From Chiloscyllium plagiosum (taxonomy: Eukaryota): DNA of 64,000 bases. Shown here piece by piece: positions 2,526-62,067 of the stretch. Within the stretch, counting starts at the first letter, position 1; every line of letters begins with the position of its first letter. The stretch is taken from assembly GCF_004010195.1 (NCBI RefSeq), contig NC_057718.1, positions 104,100,342-104,164,341 of the forward strand. The letters run 5' to 3'. Below the pieces are notes generated by a model. That model had not been told where the DNA came from and did not search any database. It worked only from the letters and a program-made list of their open reading frames with translations. Both the position numbers and the translations under genes were made by a program.

Positions 2526-3256
2526 TTGACCTTCCTCTTTCCTATCAGACGGTTGTGTTATGTTGCTGGTACAGCCCCCCCACCTCCACCCCTGTCTGCT
2601 GGGGAATGGGTTGTGTTATTTAACCCCTCACTATTGCATTAAGAGGGAACTGTTTGATTTCAGCAATGCTCCACCGTTCTGGAGGGGCCTGGACCAAAAT
2701 TCCCAGCTGGGAATGTGGGGATCAGTCCTAACAGAGAGAAAGATTCTGAGTGTGTTTGTCAGTCCAGGCAGTATCTGGGCATTACCTCCTCAGATACAAT
2801 GACCCTTCTGCTGGGCAGGGCCTACTGAGTTGTGACACATCACTGAGCAAACCGAAACTCAGAGTCAATTTGTCAGCAGATTGTTTTGAAGAAAGTGGAG
2901 TCGGGTATTGAGTTTGCGAATTTCATGAATGTCGGTTTCCTAGTTGATGACGAGCAGTGTTGTGAGGCCTGACACATTGCAGCCAATCTTGTAGGAGTAA
3001 CTAATCCAATTCCTATTAAGATGGGTCTCATCATATTACAGTGTCAAACCCTAATGGCTTGCACAGACTAATGGCTGCACAGATAAACAAAATTCTCTCT
3101 ACACTGCCCATCTGTACAGCCAGAGTCCTGTTCCTGATACACATAATGAACGTCTGTAAGTGTCTTCTTTCATTGATTTTGCACAAGATTAGGGCTGTGA
3201 GATTTTAAAAATAAGGATGCCTTCTTCATTAACTCTGCCCTTGCCCTTGTGCAAGA

Positions 3257-3361
3257 AACGTCGATTCTCCTGTTCCTTGGATGCTGCCTGACCTGCTGCG
3301 CTTTTCCAGCAACACATTTTCAGCTCTGATCTCCAGCATCTGCAGTCCTCACTTTCTCCTA
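3257..3361 (+). mobile_element. Penelope-like element terminal fragment (family A)
   Basis: Nearly identical to 32438-32540 and to the terminus after the PLE RT (36810-36875); GCAAGA repeated on both flanks (3251-3256, 3362-3367). Confidence 0.85.
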
Positions 3362-27548: not shown

Positions 27549-28439
27549 CCCAATGTGCACATTATGGGGATTGTGCATTCACAACTGCAAACTTGAATCT
27601 CTGGCTCCTTGATGGAAACATCTGTTGAATGATTATGTTAAAAAAAACACCTGTTGGACGATAACCTGGTATCATGTGACTTCTGATAATATTGCAAACA
27701 ACATTTCAAAGAGGTGGCTTCACTAATAACAAGTACAGTAGTAAACAATACTTCATCCAGCAACAGGTTAACAGCCTTGAGTACAATCCAAGTTGTGTAT
27801 ACAAATTTCAGTCAATGGAAAACATTCAATATGTTGTGTATAGACCCCCAGACCCTCCTTCATGTCTAACATGGCCATGCTTTGGTGATGAATAATATCC
27901 CAACTGCCCCTTGGATCAGCAGCTGCTTTTCCATGAAAATGATATTATGGTAACTGAGATCCAGACAAGAGTGGGCAATACTGCAAGTCCATGGTGTCTG
28001 AAATATTGCACATGGCTATGCACAAAGACATTGTAAATTGCCTCCCATTTCTGCTGACAGAGGAGGTGATTTTAAGTTGCTGTCAGGTCATATTTTGGAT
28101 TAATTGTTCTAGATCCTTCCAGCACTGAGATAAGGTCATTCATTGCTAACTTCACATGGGGCCCCACCATCTCACTTTAGCTGTTTGATATGTAAAATTG
28201 TGCCAAAGACTTGACTGTGTCAGTCTTTATAATCTAGATTTCTGAGTAATTCCAAACCCAGGCTGAAATCTCAATTGTTAGCCAAAGCAAATCTCATTAC
28301 TGAATAATTGTTGCTTAATACTTCAGCTTTTTATAAGAGCCCATGGTGTTTGAGGTTGTATATTAGCACGCGGATAGAGGATGGCTAACTAATAAAAGAC
28401 AGAGAGTTGGAACAGTGTTCAGGACAGTAATCTGCAATT

Positions 28440-31957: not shown

Positions 31958-32326
31958 CACAACCTCTCCCCTTGCCTGATGCGTGGTGACCCTCAGGTTA
32001 AACCAGCACCGGCCATCTCTCTGTCATGGGAGACTGGGACTATCACTATCTACTTCAAAGTGAAGTTCCAGTACCAACAGCACATTCATTTCCAAGTGCT
32101 CCAGCTCTTTCCCCCTCTGGAAAAGGGATAGCGAGTTTGAGAAGTATTTGTAAAAGAATGGAACTAGACTAGTTTAACATGTTAGATAAGTTTATCCTGC
32201 GTTGCAAGCTCTGGTAATGGAAAGTAGACAAGGAGGTCAAACTGGCACATCAAAGATCCACAGCTCCTGGTGAATGGTTTCATGGTGCAGAGGGATTGGG
32301 CAGAGGAGGAATACACAAAGAATAAG

Positions 32327-32540
32327 GAGCTGGAAATGTGTTGCTGGAAAAGTGCAGCAGGTCAGGCAGCATCCAGGGAACAGGAGAATCGACGTTTCGG
32401 GCATAAGCCCTTCTTCAGGAATCGGGCTTATGCCCGAAACGTCGATTCTCCTGTTCCCTGGATGCTGCCTGACCTGCTGCGCTTTTCCAGCAACACATTT
32501 CCAGCTCTGATCTCCAGCATCTGCAGACCTCACTTTCTCC
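32327..32540. mobile_element. Palindromic PLE family A mini-insertion with hammerhead motif
   Basis: 84-bp inverted arms 32327-32410/32424-32507; 15-bp TSD CACAAAGAATAAGGA (32314-32328, 32540-32554). Confidence 0.9.
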
Positions 32541-33668
32541 ACAAAGAATAAGGAACCTATCCAAGATCATCATACACAAATTGTCCAATACAGCCAGAGA
32601 TGGGGAAATATGTTTTTTATCTCTCAAAGGGCTGCGAGTCTTTGGATATGGAATCTTTCAATATTTTTAAGGGAGAAGTCGAGAGATTTGGGATTACCCA
32701 GGGGATGAAAGATCATTAAGGATGCGCAGGAATGTAGAGTTGAGATTAAAATCAGACCAGCCACAGTCCCTGATCGTTATGTTTGTCTTGGGTCAACCCA
32801 GGATGCTGAGCTGGGAGCTTTGAAGAGTAAGACAGTGACAGAGTATAATGCAAAGAGGTAAAATACACCCAAGGCTGGCATTCCACTGAGATTGCACTGC
32901 CATAGATCTAGCAGGACACCAGTACATTCCCAGGAAACAGTAGAGTAGTTTTAACTCCCTTCCGTCTGTGCCCTGTTCCTATCGGAATCTCCCTGTTGTC
33001 AGTTCCAAGGATGCGCTGCTTATAACCTGACATCATTCCCTCCGTATCGCTGTAACTCCCAGCTCTGCCTTTGAATATCCCCTAACTCCTTCAATTTAAT
33101 GCAGCAGCACACCCCCCAACTTCCATCGCTCCATTGGCGTCTCTGCGCAGCGACATTTGTGTTTGCTGTTGGAGGGAGAAGTTATATTCCCGAATGCAGA
33201 CACTTATTTGCTGACCTTTAACATCCACTGACACACTCAAAGGGAACATCCAAGTGGTGTTAGTCTGCCCACCCGGCTACACCTGGTAAACAGAGGACTG
33301 ACTAACAGGCTGAATGAATGAACATTCTGTACAACTGAACTCGACACAAAATACTTCGCTTGCTGAGAGTTTGAGAGAATGTGGAAGAGCTGATTGATGG
33401 TATTGCAGTTTATAGAATCATTGGAGTTCTACCTTGGAAGAAAGGAGTTTGACTCATGGTCACCGATATCTCTTCAACAGGAGCTACCTACCACCTGCCC
33501 ATTTCAGCGCTCTTTCCCCCCACCCTCTTGGAGCAGAGTGAACGTTTCTGATCCAGGGGTCCTTCCTCAGAACTGATGGCAGCTGGGAAAATGTCAGTGC
33601 CCATGCAGAAGATAGGGTTGGGGGAGGGGTCAAGGAGGAAACGATAGATGGAGGTAGAGCCCAAAGAG

Positions 33669-34153: not shown

Positions 34154-36040
34154 GAAGAGAAGGACATTTGGACAGACAAAGGAAACGTTAACTCTGGTTT
34201 CTCTCCACTGATGCTGCGAGACCCCCCTGAGCTGTTTTAGTAATTTCTGATTTCCAGCATCCACAGCTAATTCCGTTTTCAGAACAAAGGGAAGCGTGAG
34301 GCACATCTTGCTGGGGCAGCAGTGATGACCATTGAGCAAGGATAAGGGCCCTGCTGTGCAGCAGATCCTGATGATACTGTGGGGCAACTAGTTACTCGTA
34401 AACCGTCCAGCCAGAAGCACAGTGTGGTTATGTTATTACTGCATAACCAATCCTCCCTATGGTCTGTAAGCGAAAAAGCCCCAGGATTGGCTGGACTGGC
34501 CATAAGTCTGGCCAGGCGGTTGGCTGCCTCAGAAAGGCCTCCATACATATTCCTCATGGCAATGTAGTGAAAACTCCACCGCAGAGCCGAGTACCACACT
34601 ACAGGCTGATGGAATTATTGAGTATCGCAGGATGCTAAAGGAGGCCAGTGGACCCATAACACTGGACTGCTTCTTTAAACATGCTTAGTAATGGGATCCC
34701 CAGGTAGACACAATGAGACACAAGTTCTCTGCTTGACAATTGGTTAAATTAGAGAATGCAGCATTATGTTTATGTTGACCTCCCACTCTAATCCCATCCC
34801 TCAGCTCCTGATCCAAATCCTTATCCAAGTTCCAATGTTTCAGGGAGAGGTCCATGCTCCTGTTCAATGAGTTGGAAGTTTCCACTGGAACAAACAAAGC
34901 TGGGCAGCTCGTTCGAGACACCCAGTCCCCTCTGCGTGAACGTCTGCCCGTCTGTCCTCCCTAATCCCAAACACCTTAATTCTGTGTACCCTAGTAACGG
35001 CCCTCTCTCAGAGGGGTAGCAGCACCTTCCTGGTCTCTCTAGGACCCTCACCAGTTTGTAGACTGTGATTAAGTTACCCTCAGCCTCTTCTGTTCCAAGG
35101 AATCAGTTAACTTTCATTTCCAAGTATCCTTTAAATGGACACGTGGGGAAGAAGGGGATAGAAGGGTATGGGAATGGGGGCAGGAGGCTGGTCTTGGAGC
35201 AGAAACTCTGATTTTGGGCTGAATGGCCTGCCTCGATGCCATACGCTCTATGCCACCCTCAGGATCATGTGTGTTTGTTTGTCCTGTAGCAGAATGTTGT
35301 GTCCAGACACTGTCTACATTGTGGAGCACAGAGTTGCCCAACATGACCAGCCCCCAGTCCCTCTGCAGGGTTTGTCAACAGCTATGGACTACAACAACAA
35401 CCTTTCATCAACATCTCCACCTTCGGACGTCATTATTTAAAACACTTAAAAATGTTGGAAAAACGTGACTCTTCCCTTATCCTCTCACCAGCCAGTACCC
35501 TTCCACTGACACCCTACTTCAACTGACTGAACTGGTCCTCACCCTGAACAACTTCTCTTTCCAATCCTCACTTCCTCCAAACCAAAGGAGTAGCCATGGG
35601 CACCCGCATGGGCCTCTTCGTAGGATATGTGGAACAGTCCGTCTTCCACAGCTCCACTGGCACCACCCCCCACCTTTTCCTCCGCTAAATCGATAACTGT
35701 ATCGGCGCTACCTCGTGCTGCCATGAGGAGGTTGAACAGTTCATCCACTTTACTAACACCTTCCACCCTGACCTCAAATTTACCTGGACCGTCTCAGACT
35801 TCTCCCTCCCCTTCCTAGACCTCTCCATTTCTATCTCGGGTGACCGAATCAACACGGACATTTACTATAAACCGACCGTGTCCCACAGCTACCTAGATTA
35901 CACCTCCTCCCACCCTGCCCCCTGTAAAAACGCCATCCCATATTCCCAATTCCTTCGCCTCCGCCGCATCTGCTCCCAGGAGGACCAGTTCCAAAACCGT
36001 ACAACCCAGATGGCCTCCTTCTTCAAAGACCGCAATTTCC

Positions 36041-36623
36041 NNNNNNNNNNNNNNNNNNNNNNNNNNNNNNNNNNNNNNNNNNNNNNNNNNNNNNNNNNNN
36101 NNNNNNNNNNNNNNNNNNNNNNNNNNNNNNNNNNNNNNNNNNNNNNNNNNNNNNNNNNNNNNNNNNNNNNNNNNNNNNNNNNNNNNNNNNNNNNNNNNNN
36201 NNNNNNNNNNNNNNNNNNNNNNNNNNNNNNNNNNNNNNNNNNNNNNNNNNNNNNNNNNNNNNNNNNNNNNNNNNNNNNNNNNNNNNNNNNNNNNNNNNNN
36301 NNNNNNNNNNNNNNNNNNNNNNNNNNNNNNNNNNNNNNNNNNNNNNNNNNNNNNNNNNNNNNNNNNNNNNNNNNNNNNNNNNNNNNNNNNNNNNNNNNNN
36401 NNNNNNNNNNNNNNNNNNNNNNNNNNNNNNNNNNNNNNNNNNNNNNNNNNNNNNNNNNNNNNNNNNNNNNNNNNNNNNNNNNNNNNNNNNNNNNNNNNNN
36501 NNNNNNNNNNNNNNNNNNNNNNNNNNNNNNNNNNNNNNNNNNNNNNNNNNNNNNNNNNNNNNNNNNNNNNNNNNNNNNNNNNNNNNNNNNNNNNNNNNNN
36601 NNNNNNNNNNNNNNNNNNNNNNN
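36041..36623. other. Assembly gap (N run)
   Basis: Run of n. Confidence 1.
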
Positions 36624-36783
36624 CCTTCCTAACCTGCAATCTTCTTCCTGACCTCTCCGCCCCCACTCCAGTCTGACCTATCACCCTCACCTTGACCTCT
36701 TTCCACCTATCACATTTCTGACGCCCCTCCCCCAAGTCCCTCCTCCCTACCTTTTATCTTAGCCTGCTGGACACACTTTCCTC

Positions 36784-36820
36784 ATTCCTGAAGAAGGGCT
36801 CATGCCCGAAACGTCGATTC
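36784..36820 (+). ncRNA. Minimal type I hammerhead ribozyme motif (family A)
   Basis: CUGAAGA-A-GGGC-UCAU-GCCC-GAAAC-GUC. Confidence 0.8.
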
Positions 36821-36892
36821 TCCTGCTCCTTGGATGCTGCCTGTCCTGCTGCGCTTTTCCAGCAACACATTTTTAAGCCCGTTTCTACAAGT

Positions 36893-45383: not shown

Positions 45384-45736
45384 GCCTGACTTGCTGTGCT
45401 TTTCCAGCACCACACATTCGACTCTGATCCACAGCACCAGCAGTCCTCACTTTCTCCTAGTTGATTTCAACCCAACTGCAAAGCCTCTTCCAAGGATGTC
45501 CCTTGAAGAAGTTCTCCTCCTCTTTATCCATCACATTCCCAGCTATCTTCCTCCTAGCCCCATCCCCCTCCCATTTATCTCTCACCCCACTCCCGGCTCA
45601 CAAGCCTCATTCCTGATGAAGGGCTTATGCCCGAAATGTCTATTCTCCTGCTTCTCGCATGCTGCCTGACCTGCTGGGTTTTTCAAGCACCACACTCTCG
45701 ACTCTGATCTCCAGCATCTGCAGTCCTCACTTTCTC
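45384..45736 (+). mobile_element. Internally deleted PLE family A element with direct terminal repeats and hammerhead motif
   Basis: Terminal segment at 45384-45458 repeated at about 45664-45738; CUGAUGA-A-GGGC-UUAU-GCCC-GAAAUGUC at 45613-45640; TSD CTACTGTTTCCT (45372-45383, 45737-45748). Confidence 0.85.
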
Positions 45737-47649: not shown

Positions 47650-47800
47650 ATGAGGACTGCAGTGCTGGAGATTAGAGTCAAGATTAGAGTGGCGCTGGAA
47701 AAGCACAGCAGGTCAGGCAGCATCCAAGGAGCAGGAAAATCGACGTTTCGGGCAGAAGATCAGGAAAGGGCTCCTGCCCGAAACGTCAATTTTCCTGCTC
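47650..47800. mobile_element. PLE family A mini-insertion with short inverted arm
   Basis: 27-bp inverted arms 47729-47755/47774-47800; 22-bp TSD TTCTGGATTCTTCT(A/G)AGCTAAA (47628-47649, 47801-47822). Confidence 0.85.
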
Positions 47801-48614
47801 TTCTGGATTCTTCTGAGCTAAAGCTTTGAACTTGCTGTTCTGAAATCAAAACTAAACTAATTTCCTTAATATGTTTATTCTGCCTGTTATAAGCCTCAAC
47901 AGCATAAACATTTTACCTATTAATACAACATTTTTCCCCAAAGTACTGCATTGCTATTGTAAGTTTTCTTGGAATTAATATATTTAGGTGGCTGTTGTCC
48001 TTGCTAAAAAAGAACTTATAGAACTAACCAAGATCAATCTGCCTCTATTTTAAAATCCAAATCCAAGAAAATGTCACCAATAATACATTTTACATTGCAG
48101 GTGGGAATTATTCTTGTGATTACATCAAGTGATTACATAATGTGCATGTACAATAATCTTCTCTTCACTATTTTTGCCACAGATTTTTTTTTAAACTCAC
48201 TTGTTAGATATGGGTGTTGCTGGATGGGACAGCATTTATTGCCCATCCCTAACTGTGCATTGAGAAGGAGGGGGTGAACTGTCGTCTTTACCTCCCTGCA
48301 GTCCATGTGCTGTAGGTTTAACCCACCATGTCCTTAGGGAGGGCAGTCCAGGATTTTGACCCAGCAACACTGAAGGAACGGTGATATATTTCCAAGTCAG
48401 GATGGGGAGTGGCTTGGAGAGGAGCTTGCAAGGGTTGGTGTAGTCATACAATATCAGAGATGAGTGATTACTTGAGGGTATATCACCGAAATAAGAACAT
48501 TTGTCCAGCAGTAATGTCCATCTTTGATTTCAGCTGATCTGCAATTTCTCACCATTACCTAATGAGGCTTCTGCAGCAGTTATGGTTAGACAGCATTTTA
48601 TACCTTTTAGCTAT

Positions 48615-51129: not shown

Positions 51130-52089
51130 TTGACTTTTGTCATTTACATAAACGATTTGGATGCGAGCATAAGAGGTACAGTTAGTAAGTTTGCAGATGA
51201 CACCAAAATTGGAGATGCAGTGGACAGCGAAGAGGGTTACCTCAGATTACAACAGGATCTGGACCAGATGGGCCAATGGGCTGAGGCTTGGCAGATGGAG
51301 TTTGATTTAGATAAATGTAAGGTGCTGCATTTTGGAAAAGCAAATCAGAGCAGCATTTATACACTTAACGGTAATGTCCTAGGGAGTGTTGCTGAACAAA
51401 GAGACCTTGGAGTGCAGGTTCATAGCTCCTTGAAAGTGGAATCGCAGGTAGACAGGATAATGAAGAAGGCATTTCCTTTATTGGTCAGAGCATTGAGTAT
51501 AGGAGTTGGAAACTGTACATAACATTGGTTAGGCCACTTTTGGAATATTGTGTGCAATTCTGGTTTCCTTGCTATTGGAAGGATGTTGTGAAACTTGAAA
51601 GGGTTCAGAAAAGATTTACAAGCATGTTGCCAGGGTTGGAGGATTTGAACTGTAGGGAGAGGCTGAATAGGTTGGGACTGTTTCACCTGGAGCGTCTGAG
51701 GCTGAGGAGTGACCTTATAGAGGTTTGTAAAATCATGAGGCTCATGAATAGGGTAAATAGACAAGGTCTTTTCCCTGGGGTGGGGGAATCCAGAACTAGA
51801 GGGCATAGGTTTAAGGTGAGAGGGGAAAAATTTAAGAGGGACCTAAGGGGCAACTTTTACATGCAGAGGGTGGTGCAGTGTATAGAATGAGCTGCCAGAG
51901 GAAGTGGTGGAGGCTGGTACAATTATAGCATTTAAAGGGCACCTGGATGGGTATATGAATAGGAAGGGTTTAGAGGGATATAGGCCAAGTGCTGGCAAAT
52001 GGGACTCGATTAGGTTGGGATATCTGGTCAGTACAGACGAATTTAATTAAAGGACCTGCTTCTATGCTGTTTGACTCTATGACTCTATA
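51130..52089 (+). mobile_element. CR1 RT to 3' end
   Basis: FVIYINDLD..SKFADDTKIG..LQQDLD..WQMEF..LEYCVQFWFP.. and (GACTCTAT)n tail. Confidence 0.95.
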
Positions 52090-53034
52090 ACTTTGTCAAT
52101 GAGAAAGGTTTGAAGAACCGGAATTCAAAGGATTCAAATCGCTCACTGTTTCTCTCCAGCGATGCTGCCAGACCTGCTGAATTTCTCTGGCACTTTCTGT
52201 TTTTATTTTATACTCAACTTCCTTATACCTGGTATCATCCTGGTAAATCTCCTCTGTACCTTCCACATGGTCTTAACTGAAGGTGAGGCCACTCCATAAA
52301 GCAATGTACAGGCCCCTGCACTGTTCTATAGTGTAAGGATTAATTTGTACTCTAATGCAGGCAGCTCAGTTAAGCAAATATAAAAGTAGAAAGTGCCAGA
52401 AAGGTCACCTTCTTCAGCAAAATACCATGTAAATGTCATAGAAAATTTTGTCATTAAAAAGTACCAAAGTGCTATGTGAAAGTTATCCAAAGATGAATCA
52501 TGCATCGTATTTAATTTCTCATATTTGTGGAGAACATTATGTACTTTATACATTGTTTATGGCTAACTTTGTTGAGATTAACTACCTTGGCATGTTTGAG
52601 AGGATTGGTCACATTTAATGATGTAACAACACTATCCCAAAAGCAGCACTGGAGTGTGTACAATGTAATAGTCAGTGATAGATGGAGATTACAAAGTAGG
52701 TTAGTTTCTCCGAAAGGGATTTCAAACCCATAGTTAAAATGCAAAGTAAACTCATTATCAAAGAGCCAGATGTACCTGAAATATGTCATTCCAAGGAAGA
52801 GGCATCAGACTCATAACTCTGTTACTCGGCTTCTCCAGCAATTTGTTCTTATTTTGTTTCAAATCGCCAGCCTCCACGGTTTGTTTTTGCATTCACCCGT
52901 GTGTCATGGTGTCACCGGCTGGGCCCAGCATTTATTGCCCATGCCTAGTTGCCCTTGAGGAAGGTGGTGAGTGAACTGCTTCCCTGTGGAGCTCTGGTTG
53001 GTATGGTGGTAATACCCCTGCCTCTGAGCCAGAA

Positions 53035-53250
53035 TGATTTGGAGATTCCGGTGTTGGACTGGGTGTACAAAGTTAAAAATCACACAACACCAGGTTATAG
53101 TCCAACAGGTTTAATTGGAAGCACACTAGCTTTCGGAGCGTCGCTCCTTCATCAGGGGCTACCACCTGATGAAGGAGCGTCGCTCCGAAAGCTAGTGTGC
53201 TTCCAATTAAACCTGTTGGACTATAACCTGGTGTTGTGTGATTTTTAACT
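53035..53250. mobile_element. Palindromic PLE family B mini-insertion with a hammerhead motif on each strand
   Basis: 86-bp inverted arms 53071-53156/53165-53250; CUGAUGA-A-GGAGC-GUC-GCUCC-GAAAGCUA at 53166-53194; TSD CTCTGAGCCAGAA (53022-53034, 53249-53261). Confidence 0.9.
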
Positions 53251-54494
53251 CTGAGCCAGAAGGGCTGGGTTCAAGTCCGACCTGTTCCAGAGGCATGAAA
53301 TTATATCTCTAAATAGGCTGGTTAGAAAATGATTCAGCTGTCTTCTTGACCTGCTGCAGTCCATGTGCTGTAGTGTACACCCACAAAGACCTCAGGGAGG
53401 GAATTCCATGATTTTGAGTAAGTGACACTAAAGGAATGGCGATATATTTCCAAGTGGATAATTCATGAAACCCTGTGAGGACATAACCAGATGTTCGTTT
53501 CTGAGATCCTGGCTGTTTCATTTCGGATCAGGAAGAGGAAGGAGGAGGCCGAGATACAGGACTCTCCGTTACCCGAGGAAGAGCCCAGTCACAGTTTTAA
53601 TAGTTAGAATCCAGAGAGGGGTGATGTCAGGAAGTGTGTGAAATGTTAGCATTGAATTGAGGTTTTCTTCTGTGGCAAAAACATTTCTTCATGTGGTTTT
53701 GAAAGGAGTCAAAGCCCTAAACATTGGCTCCATGTCTTATTATTTGCTCATGGGATGTGGGCACCTCTGGCCGTGCTCGTGTTTATTGTTGATGCTGGAT
53801 CAGTTATTGGCTTGAAATCTAAGATCAATAGATGTTTGTTAAACAAAGGTATTAAGGGATATGGGCCAAAGACAGGTATATGGAGTTAGGCCACAGATCA
53901 ACCATGATCTCATTGAATGGCAGAACAGGCTTGAGGGGCTGAATGGCCTACATCCTTTCCTATCCCTAAATGCCCAACGGACAGTTAAGAGTCATCCACT
54001 TTGACGTGGGTCTGAAATCATGTGCAGGCCAGACTGTGTGATGGCAGATTTCCTTCCTTAAAGGACATTAGTGAATCTTGGGGGTTTTAACAACAATTGA
54101 TGGTTGTTACAGAGTCACTGTAAGTTTAACGTTTTCCCCTTTGAATTCAAGATTTTTTAAAAATTGAACTCTCACCATTAGCCATGGCAGGATTCAAACC
54201 AATACACATTATCACTGCACCATGACCCCTCCTAGCCCTGTCAATGGATGATGAGTTGTGACATATTTGTCCCTGTCGAAGGCTGGGTCCAGGGTCAGGA
54301 CGTGGTGTGGTAAATGTCAGGAGGTGAGGGGAGCCTGAGATAGTTTTGGTGAGGGAGGGGTTCAGGACCGCAGATTCAGGCCAAGCCCCTCTGAGCCTGA
54401 CATCAGCCAACATAGACCAATAGGAGCTCAATGGAACTCTGAGGATGGAGAAGCACAGAATCTGGCACAGTCACTCCCTTTCACATGAATCCAA

Positions 54495-54785
54495 CACCAG
54501 CTCACTCACCATAGCACCCCACCCTGCTACCCCAATTCAACACCACGCCCTCATCCAAATATAATACCCCACCCTCATACCCTGACCCTGATGCAACACC
54601 CCGCCCTCAGCCCCTCAGACCCCAATACAACACCCCACCCTCAGCCCCTCCCACCCCGATACAAACCCCGCCCCACCTCGGCTTCACCCCTCCCATCCCA
54701 ATACAATACCCACCCTCATCCCTCAACAAAATACGCCACCCTCACTCCCCATCCCCTCACTATAATACTCCTCCCCCAGACCCCA
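54495..54785. repeat. C-rich degenerate tandem repeat (..AATACAACACCCCACCCTCA..)
   Basis: About 8 imperfect units. Confidence 0.7.
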
Positions 54786-55084
54786 GTGCTGCTCAGATAG
54801 ACCAAAGGTTAAAATTGTCAGTCATTGCAATCCTGTGCAAATGAGGAAGGAGACAGTCAGTTACGAAAGTGTTATCCCCCTCGCTGTTGTCCGTTATGAT
54901 TGCAAAAGGCAAACAGTTTCATGGCTTGTCTTGATAACTGACCATCATTTCTCACCCAATATCTTGGGTCTGTTTCTGAATACTCAGGTTTAAATCAAAG
55001 TTACAGATACTGAGACTACATTTCAGTTGTAATGACAGAGGGACAGTGAGAAAGGAAGGAATCATACAGGTCTACAGCACTGAA

Positions 55085-59750: not shown

Positions 59751-61807
59751 AAGAGTTCAAGTCAGGACTATAAAGTGAGACCATGACCAATAATCACCGT
59801 CTTCTAAAAACTCATTTGGTTCAATGAGGTCCTATAGGGAAAGAAATCTGCCATCCTTACCTGGTCTGGCCTTTACTGGCACCATATCTACGGTAGTGTG
59901 ATCATAAATACAACATAAAAGTGGCCCAGCATACTCTTTGTGGTGAAGTGGTAATGTCTGTACCTCTGAGTCAGAAGGTCCAGGTCATGCTCTACCTGCC
60001 CCAAGGATAGGGTGTCAAAGTATGTCTAAACAGGTCAATTAAAGTAAGCAAAGATGACCCAGCAACTCGGCTGTACCAAAGCCACAATAAAAATCTCAAG
60101 CCAAATGGACCGTAGCGGTTAGAGACAGTGACTCAGTACCACCTTCTCAAGGGCAATCCATACTGGGCCAGCCAGCAACAGCCAGCCCATGAAATAATAT
60201 CATCAATAAATCTGTTACTGTGAAGGGAAGCTTTCAGCAATACCTTCCAATACAAAGGTGAGAGGAAAATGTCACAACAGGGTTGGAATGGTAGAGTGAA
60301 GATGGAGAACATTACAGGAAAGAGAGGCTTGGCTTTGGCAGTGGGATAGAGGGGGAAAACACTGAGTGACAGCTTACGATGTACGTCAATGACCTGGAAG
60401 CAGAGACAAGAAAGCGGAGTCTGACCAATCACATCAAGAAGAGAGGGCTTGCAAACAATCAGAGGTGAAATTATGAATGTCCCGGTTGGAGTGTTGGAGA
60501 CCCAGCTAATCACTGGCAGGCGGACAAGGGCAAGGTCATGAGATCGGTAAAGGATAGCGAGTAGCAGCAAAAGAAGATGAAGAGTATTATTTTACAGAAC
60601 GCATTACAGGAGAAGGATTCGGGATTACTGACGGATTGGTTGTCAGAACTATTATTATGGTGTGCAACATCTGTGAAGAAAGCAAATAACATCCTGCTGG
60701 GTATTACCAGAATACGAGGATGCAGTAATCAGTCACTGATTCGGGGTGTTGTACATCACGGCTGTATACCTGAGTACTGTGGATTGTTCAGGGCTCCGAA
60801 CTTCAGCAAATGTATCCAGGCATTTGAGAGGGCTTCTTTTGTTTAGTCATTCAGGGATGTGGGCATCACTGGCTGGGCCAGCTTTTATTGTCCCATCCCT
60901 AAATGCCCAGAGGGAAGTTAGGATCTAATCTCCATACTGTGGGTCTGGAGTCACGTGTAGGCCAGACCAAGTAAGGACAACAGTTTTCCTTCTGTAAGGG
61001 GGCATTAAGTGAACCAGGCGGGTTTTTAGGAAAATATGGCTACCATGACAAAGACTCATTTTCAATCAGTTATTTTAGTATATTCACTTTTCTTCCAGGA
61101 GCTCCAATGATTGTGCATCCCCAGGGTACGAGCCTGGCTTTGTGAAGCAGCAGCCTAGAGACACTAACATGTCATTGTCACCCTAAAGCTATTGGATCAC
61201 TCATTACCAATTCCTTACTGCTCCTCCCCCCACCCTCCCCACCCCACTCCAACTTGGTGGCCAGCTGACACCAAGACCAGCTAGGCCTCCTCCAGGGGGG
61301 TGGGATTTCCCACACAGTGGACACAGCCCCCTCAAGGACACAGTGGCTCCAGAGCCCAGCACAGGGCCAGGAGAGGCTGCGGCATCGAGCAGTGACTGTC
61401 CTGCAGGGAGCTGAGTCCCACTACCTCCACCACCCGGCTGCTGGAGGGCTGCCTTCTTTCATTCATTCTCTGAAGGCAACTGGGACAGGCTCCATATTAA
61501 TGTGTCCTCACTCTCACCGATCTGCCTCAATGGTGCCCCTTGTGGTGTTTGTTATTAGAAGGACCTTCTGTAATCAGCCTGTGTGAGGATGTTAATGACA
61601 CACCTCTGGGGCAAATGGCACTGGACCTCAGGTCTCCTGGCTCAGAGGGAGGGTCACTACAAGACTCATTATGTTAACCCTGTTTCTCTTCCGGCAGATG
61701 CTGCCAGACCTGCTGAGTTTCTCCAACACTTTCTGATTTTAATACTTTGCGTAATCGCAGGGTAGCTTACCTCAGCTAAAAACAACGCACTGCAGGATTT
61801 GACTCCT

Positions 61808-62067
61808 GTGATGCAATGATAATGTCCCTACCCTTAGACCTGGAGGCCCAGGTTCAAGTCCTATCTACTGCAAAGGTGTGCAATAACATTGCTGAATGGG
61901 TTGATTAGGAAAATAAGTTAAATGTTTAAAATAACTTTAATCCACAGATAGGTTGTGGTGGTGCAATGGTTGTGCCCATACCCCTGGACCAGGACACCCA
62001 GGTTCAGGTTCCACCTTCTCCAGAGCTATGTAATAATAACATCTCTGAACAAGTTGATTAAAAGATA
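61808..62067 (+). mobile_element. Two tandem copies of a ~110-bp tRNA-like short element (also 59940-60042 and 53000-53330)
   Basis: A-box-like GTGGTGCAATGGT, B-box-like GGTTCAAGTCC, shared tail AATAACATCTCTGAACAAGTTGATTA. Confidence 0.65.

Follow-up and report, generated by a model that had tools for sequence, protein, structure and literature searches.

Positions 53022-53261 of the analysed window, a 64,000-nt stretch of the Chiloscyllium plagiosum genome (NC_057718.1, 104,100,342 to 104,164,341, forward strand), contain a short palindromic insertion that is almost certainly the stub of a Penelope-like element (PLE). Two copies of the end of its pseudo-LTR (pLTR) lie head to head inside older host repeats, as listed below, with arm positions counted from nucleotide C3 of the hammerhead core.

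52885..53455, minus strand: outer old repeat, split by the tRNA-like element (approximate ends)
52982..53331, plus strand: old tRNA-like (SINE-like) element, ~110-120 nt long, interrupted by the PLE stub (approximate ends)
53022..53034, plus strand: left copy of the 13-bp target-site duplication, a direct repeat
53035..53070, minus strand: PLE tail of 36 nt, on the long arm only; outer end, putative distal reverse transcription (RT) start site
53071..53156, minus strand: long arm, a pLTR end with a minimal hammerhead core (C3 at 53155), 1 nt of leader and a broken stem I
53110..53115, minus strand: ATTAAA hexamer of poly(A)-signal type in the long arm, from sequence; poly(A) reads lie 12-15 nt downstream on a family copy
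53157..53164, no strand: centre, two non-templated-looking G and then the short-arm leader to position -7
53163..53197, plus strand: minimal type I hammerhead motif, from sequence, with a 3-bp stem I, a 5-6-bp stem II and a self-complementary 4-nt helix III stub
53165..53250, plus strand: short arm, a pLTR end without tail; outer end, putative proximal RT start site
53206..53211, plus strand: ATTAAA hexamer of poly(A)-signal type in the short arm; poly(A) tails would, by homology, be added at 53223-53226
53249..53261, plus strand: right copy of the 13-bp target-site duplication

The near-perfect palindrome described in the first-pass annotation was recovered intact, with 86-bp arms (53071-53156 and 53165-53250), an 8-nt spacer (53157-53164), a single T-T mismatch between the arms (53141/53180) and a 13-bp duplication at 53022-53034 and 53249-53261. 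The end of the right arm overlaps the right copy of the duplication by its first 2 nt, and the net insertion is 214 bp. That annotation had overlooked the tail, how the centre arose and the poly(A) signals carried by both arms; since the 36 nt at 53035-53070 are the element's tail, the insert is asymmetric. At the centre, the short arm extends to position -7, beyond which stand two extra bases, and just 1 nt of leader remains on the long arm; a pattern search found this exact centre once in the genome, and family loci L083 and L086 carry centre runs similar to 53157-53164. The mismatch at 53141/53180 equals a flipped stem II hairpin loop. An A allele occurs at this site in 10 of 100 arms, mostly in one arm of a pair; micro-inversion, a second template or mutation may each be the source, and the single mismatch cannot separate one template from two.

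In a second organism, contigs from two runs extend across the left junction and 24 nt into the tail (the tool's bridging standard is 31 nt), and a same-organism contig is identical to 53246-53365; among four independent runs, no contig spans the centre. The flanks diverge from the second organism at 5/238 and 13/159 sites, and one mismatch per 86 bp fits neutral decay at that divergence.

The stub had been placed inside a tRNA-like element, itself inside a LINE tail. With relaxed settings, ARAGORN calls the rejoined empty site tRNA-like, which supports the inner layer, and the rejoined sequence matches uninterrupted relatives at 65-69%, relatives at 65-78% being recorded in all. Four degenerate relatives of this element lie at 59934-60034 and 61566-62066, three of them clustered. 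The outer layer is plausible as a LINE tail, but no tool named it so. It is contiguous in other genomic copies and matches the end of an open reading frame (ORF) at window positions 14287-15012 (tblastn E 1.7e-8, 801-nt target), which Pfam, BLASTP and Atlas did not name as LINE; the repeat at 52885..53455 would plausibly be the 3' end of a LINE ORF2. Elsewhere in the window, the open frames at 18154-18960 and 20781-21317 resemble the gag and RT of an LTR retroelement, a degenerate array of 24-42-nt C-rich units occupies 54522-54786, and a weak U6-like match (E 0.2, under the gathering score) lies at 51566-51674.

Element family and hammerhead motif

The family was counted by sequence patterns across the 3.56-Gb genome, with reversed patterns as controls. 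The exact core returned 12,631 matches and a 28-mer downstream of it 35,759, with no match to either reversed control. Head-to-head cores at most 17 nt apart number 6,859 in the genome and belong to at least two families; a centre pattern weighted towards the present family gave 3,255 strand-matches, equivalent to at least ~1,600 loci. Among the first 100 matches listed for the 28-mer, 17 head-to-head pairs fell within 1.3 kb, nine of them with a spacing, counted by eye, of 112-127 nt, like the 124 nt at this locus. The palindrome is real yet ordinary, one among well over a thousand alike stubs.

The earlier assignment to a PLE end is borne out by a linked ORF with RT plus, at its C terminus, a GIY-YIG-type domain, by the tail and by the target-site duplication. 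In longer family copies, ~430-700 nt of untranslated sequence separate the repeat from an ORF farther upstream, which encodes RT, a linker of CX4CxxC type and a GIY-YIG-type domain that contains two cysteines. The linker and endonuclease features were read by eye in the translations of copies L279, L280 and L282 against the part of PMC8557442 that describes them; the combined RT and GIY-YIG ORF was read in L280 and L282, away from 53022-53261. This ORF matched Pfam RVT_1 at E 7e-6, under Pfam's cut-off, and the family protein's first Atlas match, at 0.97, was to an RT/GIY-YIG cluster. Searches with a 96-aa endonuclease piece returned no useful Pfam or PDB match, and a 480-aa ORF had no PDB match. 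In L280 and L282 a matching arm lies downstream of the ORF at 90-95% identity, and L282 is arranged in the classic way, with an inverted pLTR, a truncated ORF, a direct pLTR and a tail. The family copies recovered include no full-length element that retains its 5' end. Judged by its domain description, the element would be of Neptune/Nematis type as defined in the part of PMC8557442 consulted. Within the window, a PLE-like RT fragment at 35689-36651 runs into N, and older decayed pieces of the same PLE end lie at 13819-13882, 14058-14086 and 27649-27682.

A second PLE hammerhead family, of unrelated sequence and the same layout, is present at window positions 32314-32554. It has a palindrome at 32327-32503, a one-sided tail of ~36 nt, a 15-bp duplication and, by eye, different stem letters and a different palindromic stub; further pieces occur at 3246-3349, 13917-14020, 36784-36872, 45599-45727 and 47653-47811.

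Recognition of the hammerhead relied on its core and on its likeness to the minimal metazoan PLE hammerheads in the relevant part of PMC4209133. A complete hammerhead had been claimed on each strand. The conserved core nucleotides can indeed be read on both, but helix III is a self-complementary 4-mer without a loop, so "complete" applies to those nucleotides only. The plus copy has the minimal type I layout (conserved core, stems I and II, palindromic 15.2-16.2), with the 3-bp CAC/GUG stem I reported earlier and a predicted cut between 53194 and 53195; the minus copy carries CCC in place of CAC, which breaks its stem I. Lacking a looped helix III, the motif departs from canonical monomer-active hammerheads, and Rfam returned zero hammerhead matches at E<=1, only generic hairpin (miRNA) models under their gathering scores. 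With the published minimal motifs it shares the conserved core, an extra nucleotide before stem II, a G-C first pair of stem II and the self-complementary helix III stub. It differs from those described in that part of PMC4209133 in its stems (stem I of 3 bp vs 4-5 bp, stem II of 5-6 bp vs 7-8 bp) and in the spacing of opposite-strand dual motifs, which are 100-700 bp apart there and only 10 nt apart here. Both the layout and the ribozyme type are already published.

Across the family, the exact 5' core was found in 38 and the exact 3' core in 51 of 60 sampled arms. The covariation in stems I and II proposed as a check on the ribozyme did not appear, as no two-sided change occurred in 60 arms, a weak test on dead copies of one family; a one-sided C-G to U-G change in stem I was present in 13. 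The 240-nt stretch folds at a predicted -181.6 kcal/mol (z -25.6; 0/200 shuffles as stable), and the idea that a read-through RNA would form one long hairpin at the expense of the ribozyme agrees with predicted energies of -163.8 vs -9.1 kcal/mol. As a prediction from folding this is physically sound, but it applies to thousands of loci. With its self-complementary helix III the motif would need a partner; the two hammerheads, on opposite strands, never occur in a single RNA and would be locked into the hairpin in an RNA spanning both, so that their cleavage is unlikely. Neither a pile-up of genomic 5' ends nor any RNA end was listed at the cut site. In the published work cited here, minimal PLE hammerheads did not cleave as monomers (PMC4209133), and cleavage by a PLE hammerhead needed protein (PMC11167929).

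Ends, centres and polyadenylation across the family

Outer ends were compared in 60 palindromes, namely 59 of the 63 distinct loci among the first 100 of 3,255 strand-matches together with the present locus. The long arm terminates 119-121 nt past C3 in 50 of the 60 and the short arm 83-92 nt past C3 in 42; the target-site duplication measures 9-17 bp in 42 and 11-13 bp in 29. These ends match the tail boundaries of PAc (Poseidon of Anolis), an anole PLE in which they are set by two internal RT start sites and whose enzyme, a predicted dimer as reported in the part of PMC11167929 drawn upon, cuts both strands and extends them. One-sided tails of 30-40 bp are described in PLEs (PMC8557442, PMC11167929; relevant parts).

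The inner ends were surveyed in 79 arms chosen by the downstream 28-mer only, a sample that includes one row consisting of an N run and in which inverted sequence in the references inflates a few of the greatest lengths. Thirty-eight of these arms begin no more than 15 nt before C3, eight of them exactly at -8, and in read-through copies a TATAAA begins 30 nt before -8. Genome-wide, the native C precedes -8 in 18,404 cases, a G in 2,744 and either A or T in 1,227. Among the first loci listed for each class, all 30 G cases were junctions (24 scored as inverted), whereas read-through accounted for 11/20 A/T cases and 24/30 C cases; junction G therefore outnumbers junction A plus T by about five to one, an excess that arises in an AT-rich genome.

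Clean long and short ends were available for 45 of the 60 palindromes. Eighteen of their arms end at -8, each directly after a G (18/18); 12 of these complete arms are short ones and 6 long ones, and five of the 45 centres belong to loop-free perfect palindromes. Both arms are complete with G at 60 loci (control 0). In the 50 of these that were fetched, the leaders represent different family variants in nine, where the mutation rate between arms would predict 1.2 (P 5e-6); at L099, L295 and L318 the arms differ at 2-3 linked variant sites. Centres vary between loci, and other palindromes also have 0-1 mismatches. Arm pairs, scored in 50 of 60, carry 6.8 differences within pairs vs 9.3 in random pairs, with none of 2,000 shuffles as low, and rare changes were common to both arms in 12 instances and confined to a single arm in 141. 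The arms are therefore mostly of one lineage.

Two candidate readings of the centre were rejected. Truncation by ribozyme cleavage was seen at one of 30 core-selected loci (L017) and in no clean case among the 79 arms; at L017 one inverted arm starts exactly at the predicted cut site. A TG indel between arms fails as proof of two templates, as similar slippage occurs at a second TG run and the indel does not track the leader difference. At L285-L334, short inserts between two complete arms copy the element's own first bases, as if cDNA ends had annealed, extended and slipped repeatedly before joining.

Polyadenylation was assessed in one single-cell poly(A) run (X21), of which ~2 in 100 was sampled and 2,550 reads aligned, to family copy L010 and not to 53022-53261. 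Poly(A) loose ends were found 57 and 60 nt past C3 on L010, in 337 and 414 reads (751 in total). The region concerned is 1541-1561 of L010, with window equivalents at 53206-53226 (plus strand) and 53095-53115 (minus strand). The ends fall 12-15 nt after the hexamer and ahead of a GU-rich tract, the genomic sequence there is not A-rich, and main-strand depth drops from ~1,050 to ~290 at the site. The hexamer is ATTAAA in 72 and AATAAA in 13 of 97 arms read, both of signal type. The poly(A) signal of the family's pLTR is thus used, as observed in RNA reads on L010, which come from one sample and may derive from a few host genes ending in inserted copies; at 53022-53261, such signals could end a read-through transcript within the second arm. 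The pLTR accordingly has the order TATA, putative start, hammerhead, poly(A) signal and site, and two putative RT start sites. No pile-up of RNA starts was listed in the X21 reads on L010. For PLE pLTRs, neither a cap G, a fixed run-off point nor a poly(A) site is described in the literature covered (mostly open-access main texts, Repbase aside).

Origin of the palindrome and relation to other retroelements

The palindrome probably arose by run-off from two primers, both cut strands priming RT that runs off the capped RNA end. In a single event, two PLE ends would have been built head to head at a staggered DNA cut. The GIY-YIG endonuclease would cut both strands 13 nt apart, as the 13-bp duplication suggests, and each 3' end would prime within the RNA at either of two positions, ~85 and 121 nt beyond the start of the core, giving a short arm and a long arm with the 36-nt tail; such two-site priming has been demonstrated in vitro for the anole PLE (PMC11167929, part consulted). 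The RNA template, likely capped, would begin 8 nt ahead of the ribozyme core. Both cDNAs would reach or approach the RNA 5' end, where RT would copy the cap G or add a C, and their 3' ends would join through 1-3 nt of pairing or a few added bases, with gaps filled afterwards. In L1 insertions, capped 5' ends are recognised by an extra G (PMC11702581, relevant part). The product lacks a TATA box and is thus a likely dead end.

Against this origin, the start at -8 and the cap are putative, the RNA reads listing no place where many molecules begin. The G can often be read as a base of the other arm and may thus be a favoured pairing partner and not a copy of the cap; the leader adjoins the junction, which may be error-prone, and the count of nine mixed loci in 50 would then be inflated. 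The present locus also fits imperfectly, its short arm stopping at -7 and not at -8. The main competing account is fold-back self-priming, in which the 3' end of one cDNA (or of an antisense template) folds over and primes a copy of the same strand that ends 36 nt early, and later small deletions or slips reshape the centre. This published hypothesis for head-to-head PLE junctions (PMC3846280, relevant part) also predicts arms of one lineage, accommodates the rare private changes common to both, and is compatible with asymmetric spacers that show 1-3 nt of terminal pairing, as a hairpin loop would. Folding back a long cDNA, however, would put the loop on the long arm, whereas the short arm is complete in 12 of 18 cases and at this locus; the loop is absent from 5/45 centres, 60 loci have two complete ends with G, and nine of 50 palindromes join different variants. 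Taken together, short arms that are complete, centres without a loop, loci with both ends complete and arms of different variants favour run-off from two primers over fold-back, to which we give a low probability.

Three further accounts fare worse. A functional RNA element, serving as Dicer/ADAR substrate, as ribozyme switch or as two-way terminator and held near-perfect by selection or by conversion between the arms, would agree with the very stable hairpin, with a poly(A) signal per arm of which family transcripts make use, and with the left junction in the second organism's contigs; it is highly improbable given that the 1/86 mismatch is in line with neutral decay and matched by 0-1 mismatches at other loci, that the stub sits within a nest of dead repeats and has thousands of equivalents in the genome, and that stems I and II show zero compensatory changes in 60 arms. 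Constant size, a terminal duplication and a ribozyme motif would suit a self-spreading palindromic mini-element, retrozyme- or MITE-like and moving as a unit, and animal retrozymes have been proposed as PLE derivatives (10.64898/2026.07.22.740005, part consulted). Such a unit is very improbable here, where the exact centre occurs only once in the genome and centres differ per locus, the tail makes the ends non-inverted, and there is neither tandem array nor promoter; non-LTR retrozymes are head-to-tail tandem units with a type I hammerhead, and the locus holds a single head-to-head pair with a unique centre. The concern that the inversion is an assembly artefact draws on the difficulty of assembling palindromes and on the unspanned centre, but the exact 13-bp duplication, one-sided tail, asymmetric centre, identical layout family-wide, left junction in the second organism (short of the bridging standard, as noted above) and identical same-organism contig leave it hardly any probability.

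Under the favoured run-off from two primers, the pLTR invites comparison with retroviral LTRs. Retroviral minus-strand strong-stop synthesis primes ~100 nt inside the RNA and runs off at the cap, within a U3-R-U5 layout. The likeness lies in the succession of promoter, start, poly(A) signal and site, and priming sites; the difference is that the primer here would be nicked chromosomal DNA and not a tRNA, and that strand transfer is a hypothesis. In L1 twin priming, different parts of one RNA are copied, giving inversion without duplication, whereas both primers here would copy the same stretch, partly from two variants. The two processes would share priming by both target strands, a microhomology junction and an extra G at the complete 5' end (for the G, PMC11702581, relevant part).

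Among PLEs, the insertions carrying an endonuclease (EN+) described in the relevant parts of PMC3846280 (Pen2a_Av and others), PMC8557442 and PMC2377424 (D. virilis Penelope) share an inverted, 5'-truncated pLTR beside a direct one, a one-sided tail of 30-40 bp, a target-site duplication of ~8-13 bp and a palindromic head-to-head junction. Unlike in these, no body is left here and both arms end at a single fixed position, and the published EN+ scheme proposes self-priming, whereas the junction counts here favour two primers. The TATA-like box of the Adineta pLTR (PMC3846280) has its counterpart here, unlike the TATA-less internal promoter of D. virilis Penelope (PMC2377424). PAc likewise has two internal RT start sites bounding the tail, both DNA strands cut and extended, a hammerhead just upstream and no RNA ends at the cut site, as reported in the part of PMC11167929 drawn upon, which treats neither inverted junctions nor a cap G. 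It belongs to the Penelope/Poseidon clade and its ORF starts at an ATG within the core; in the present family the core-ATG frame stops after 8 codons and the protein has an extra linker Zn-finger.

How PLEs build their inverted ends is called undefined in PMC8557442 and only outlined in PMC11167929, as far as the parts consulted go. It is conceivable, though doubtful, that PLE pLTRs function like retroviral LTRs under target priming. In the corresponding scheme, offered as speculation, RNA would start, capped, just before the hammerhead and receive its poly(A) tail ~65 nt further on, within the next pLTR; from either side of the cut, an enzyme acting as a dimer would prime two RNAs beyond the poly(A) site, and two strong-stop cDNAs would join (palindromes) or one would transfer to the polyadenylated RNA 3' end to copy the body. 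If true, this would explain tail, inversion and pseudo-LTR together, with the stubs as its fossil record. The locus alone matters little, but the family is a large natural data set on the construction of PLE inverted ends, whose junction counts suggest a fixed start for the RNA plus an added G, two-sided priming and, in part, two templates; the run-off and poly(A) results are direct predictions for the in vitro PAc system.
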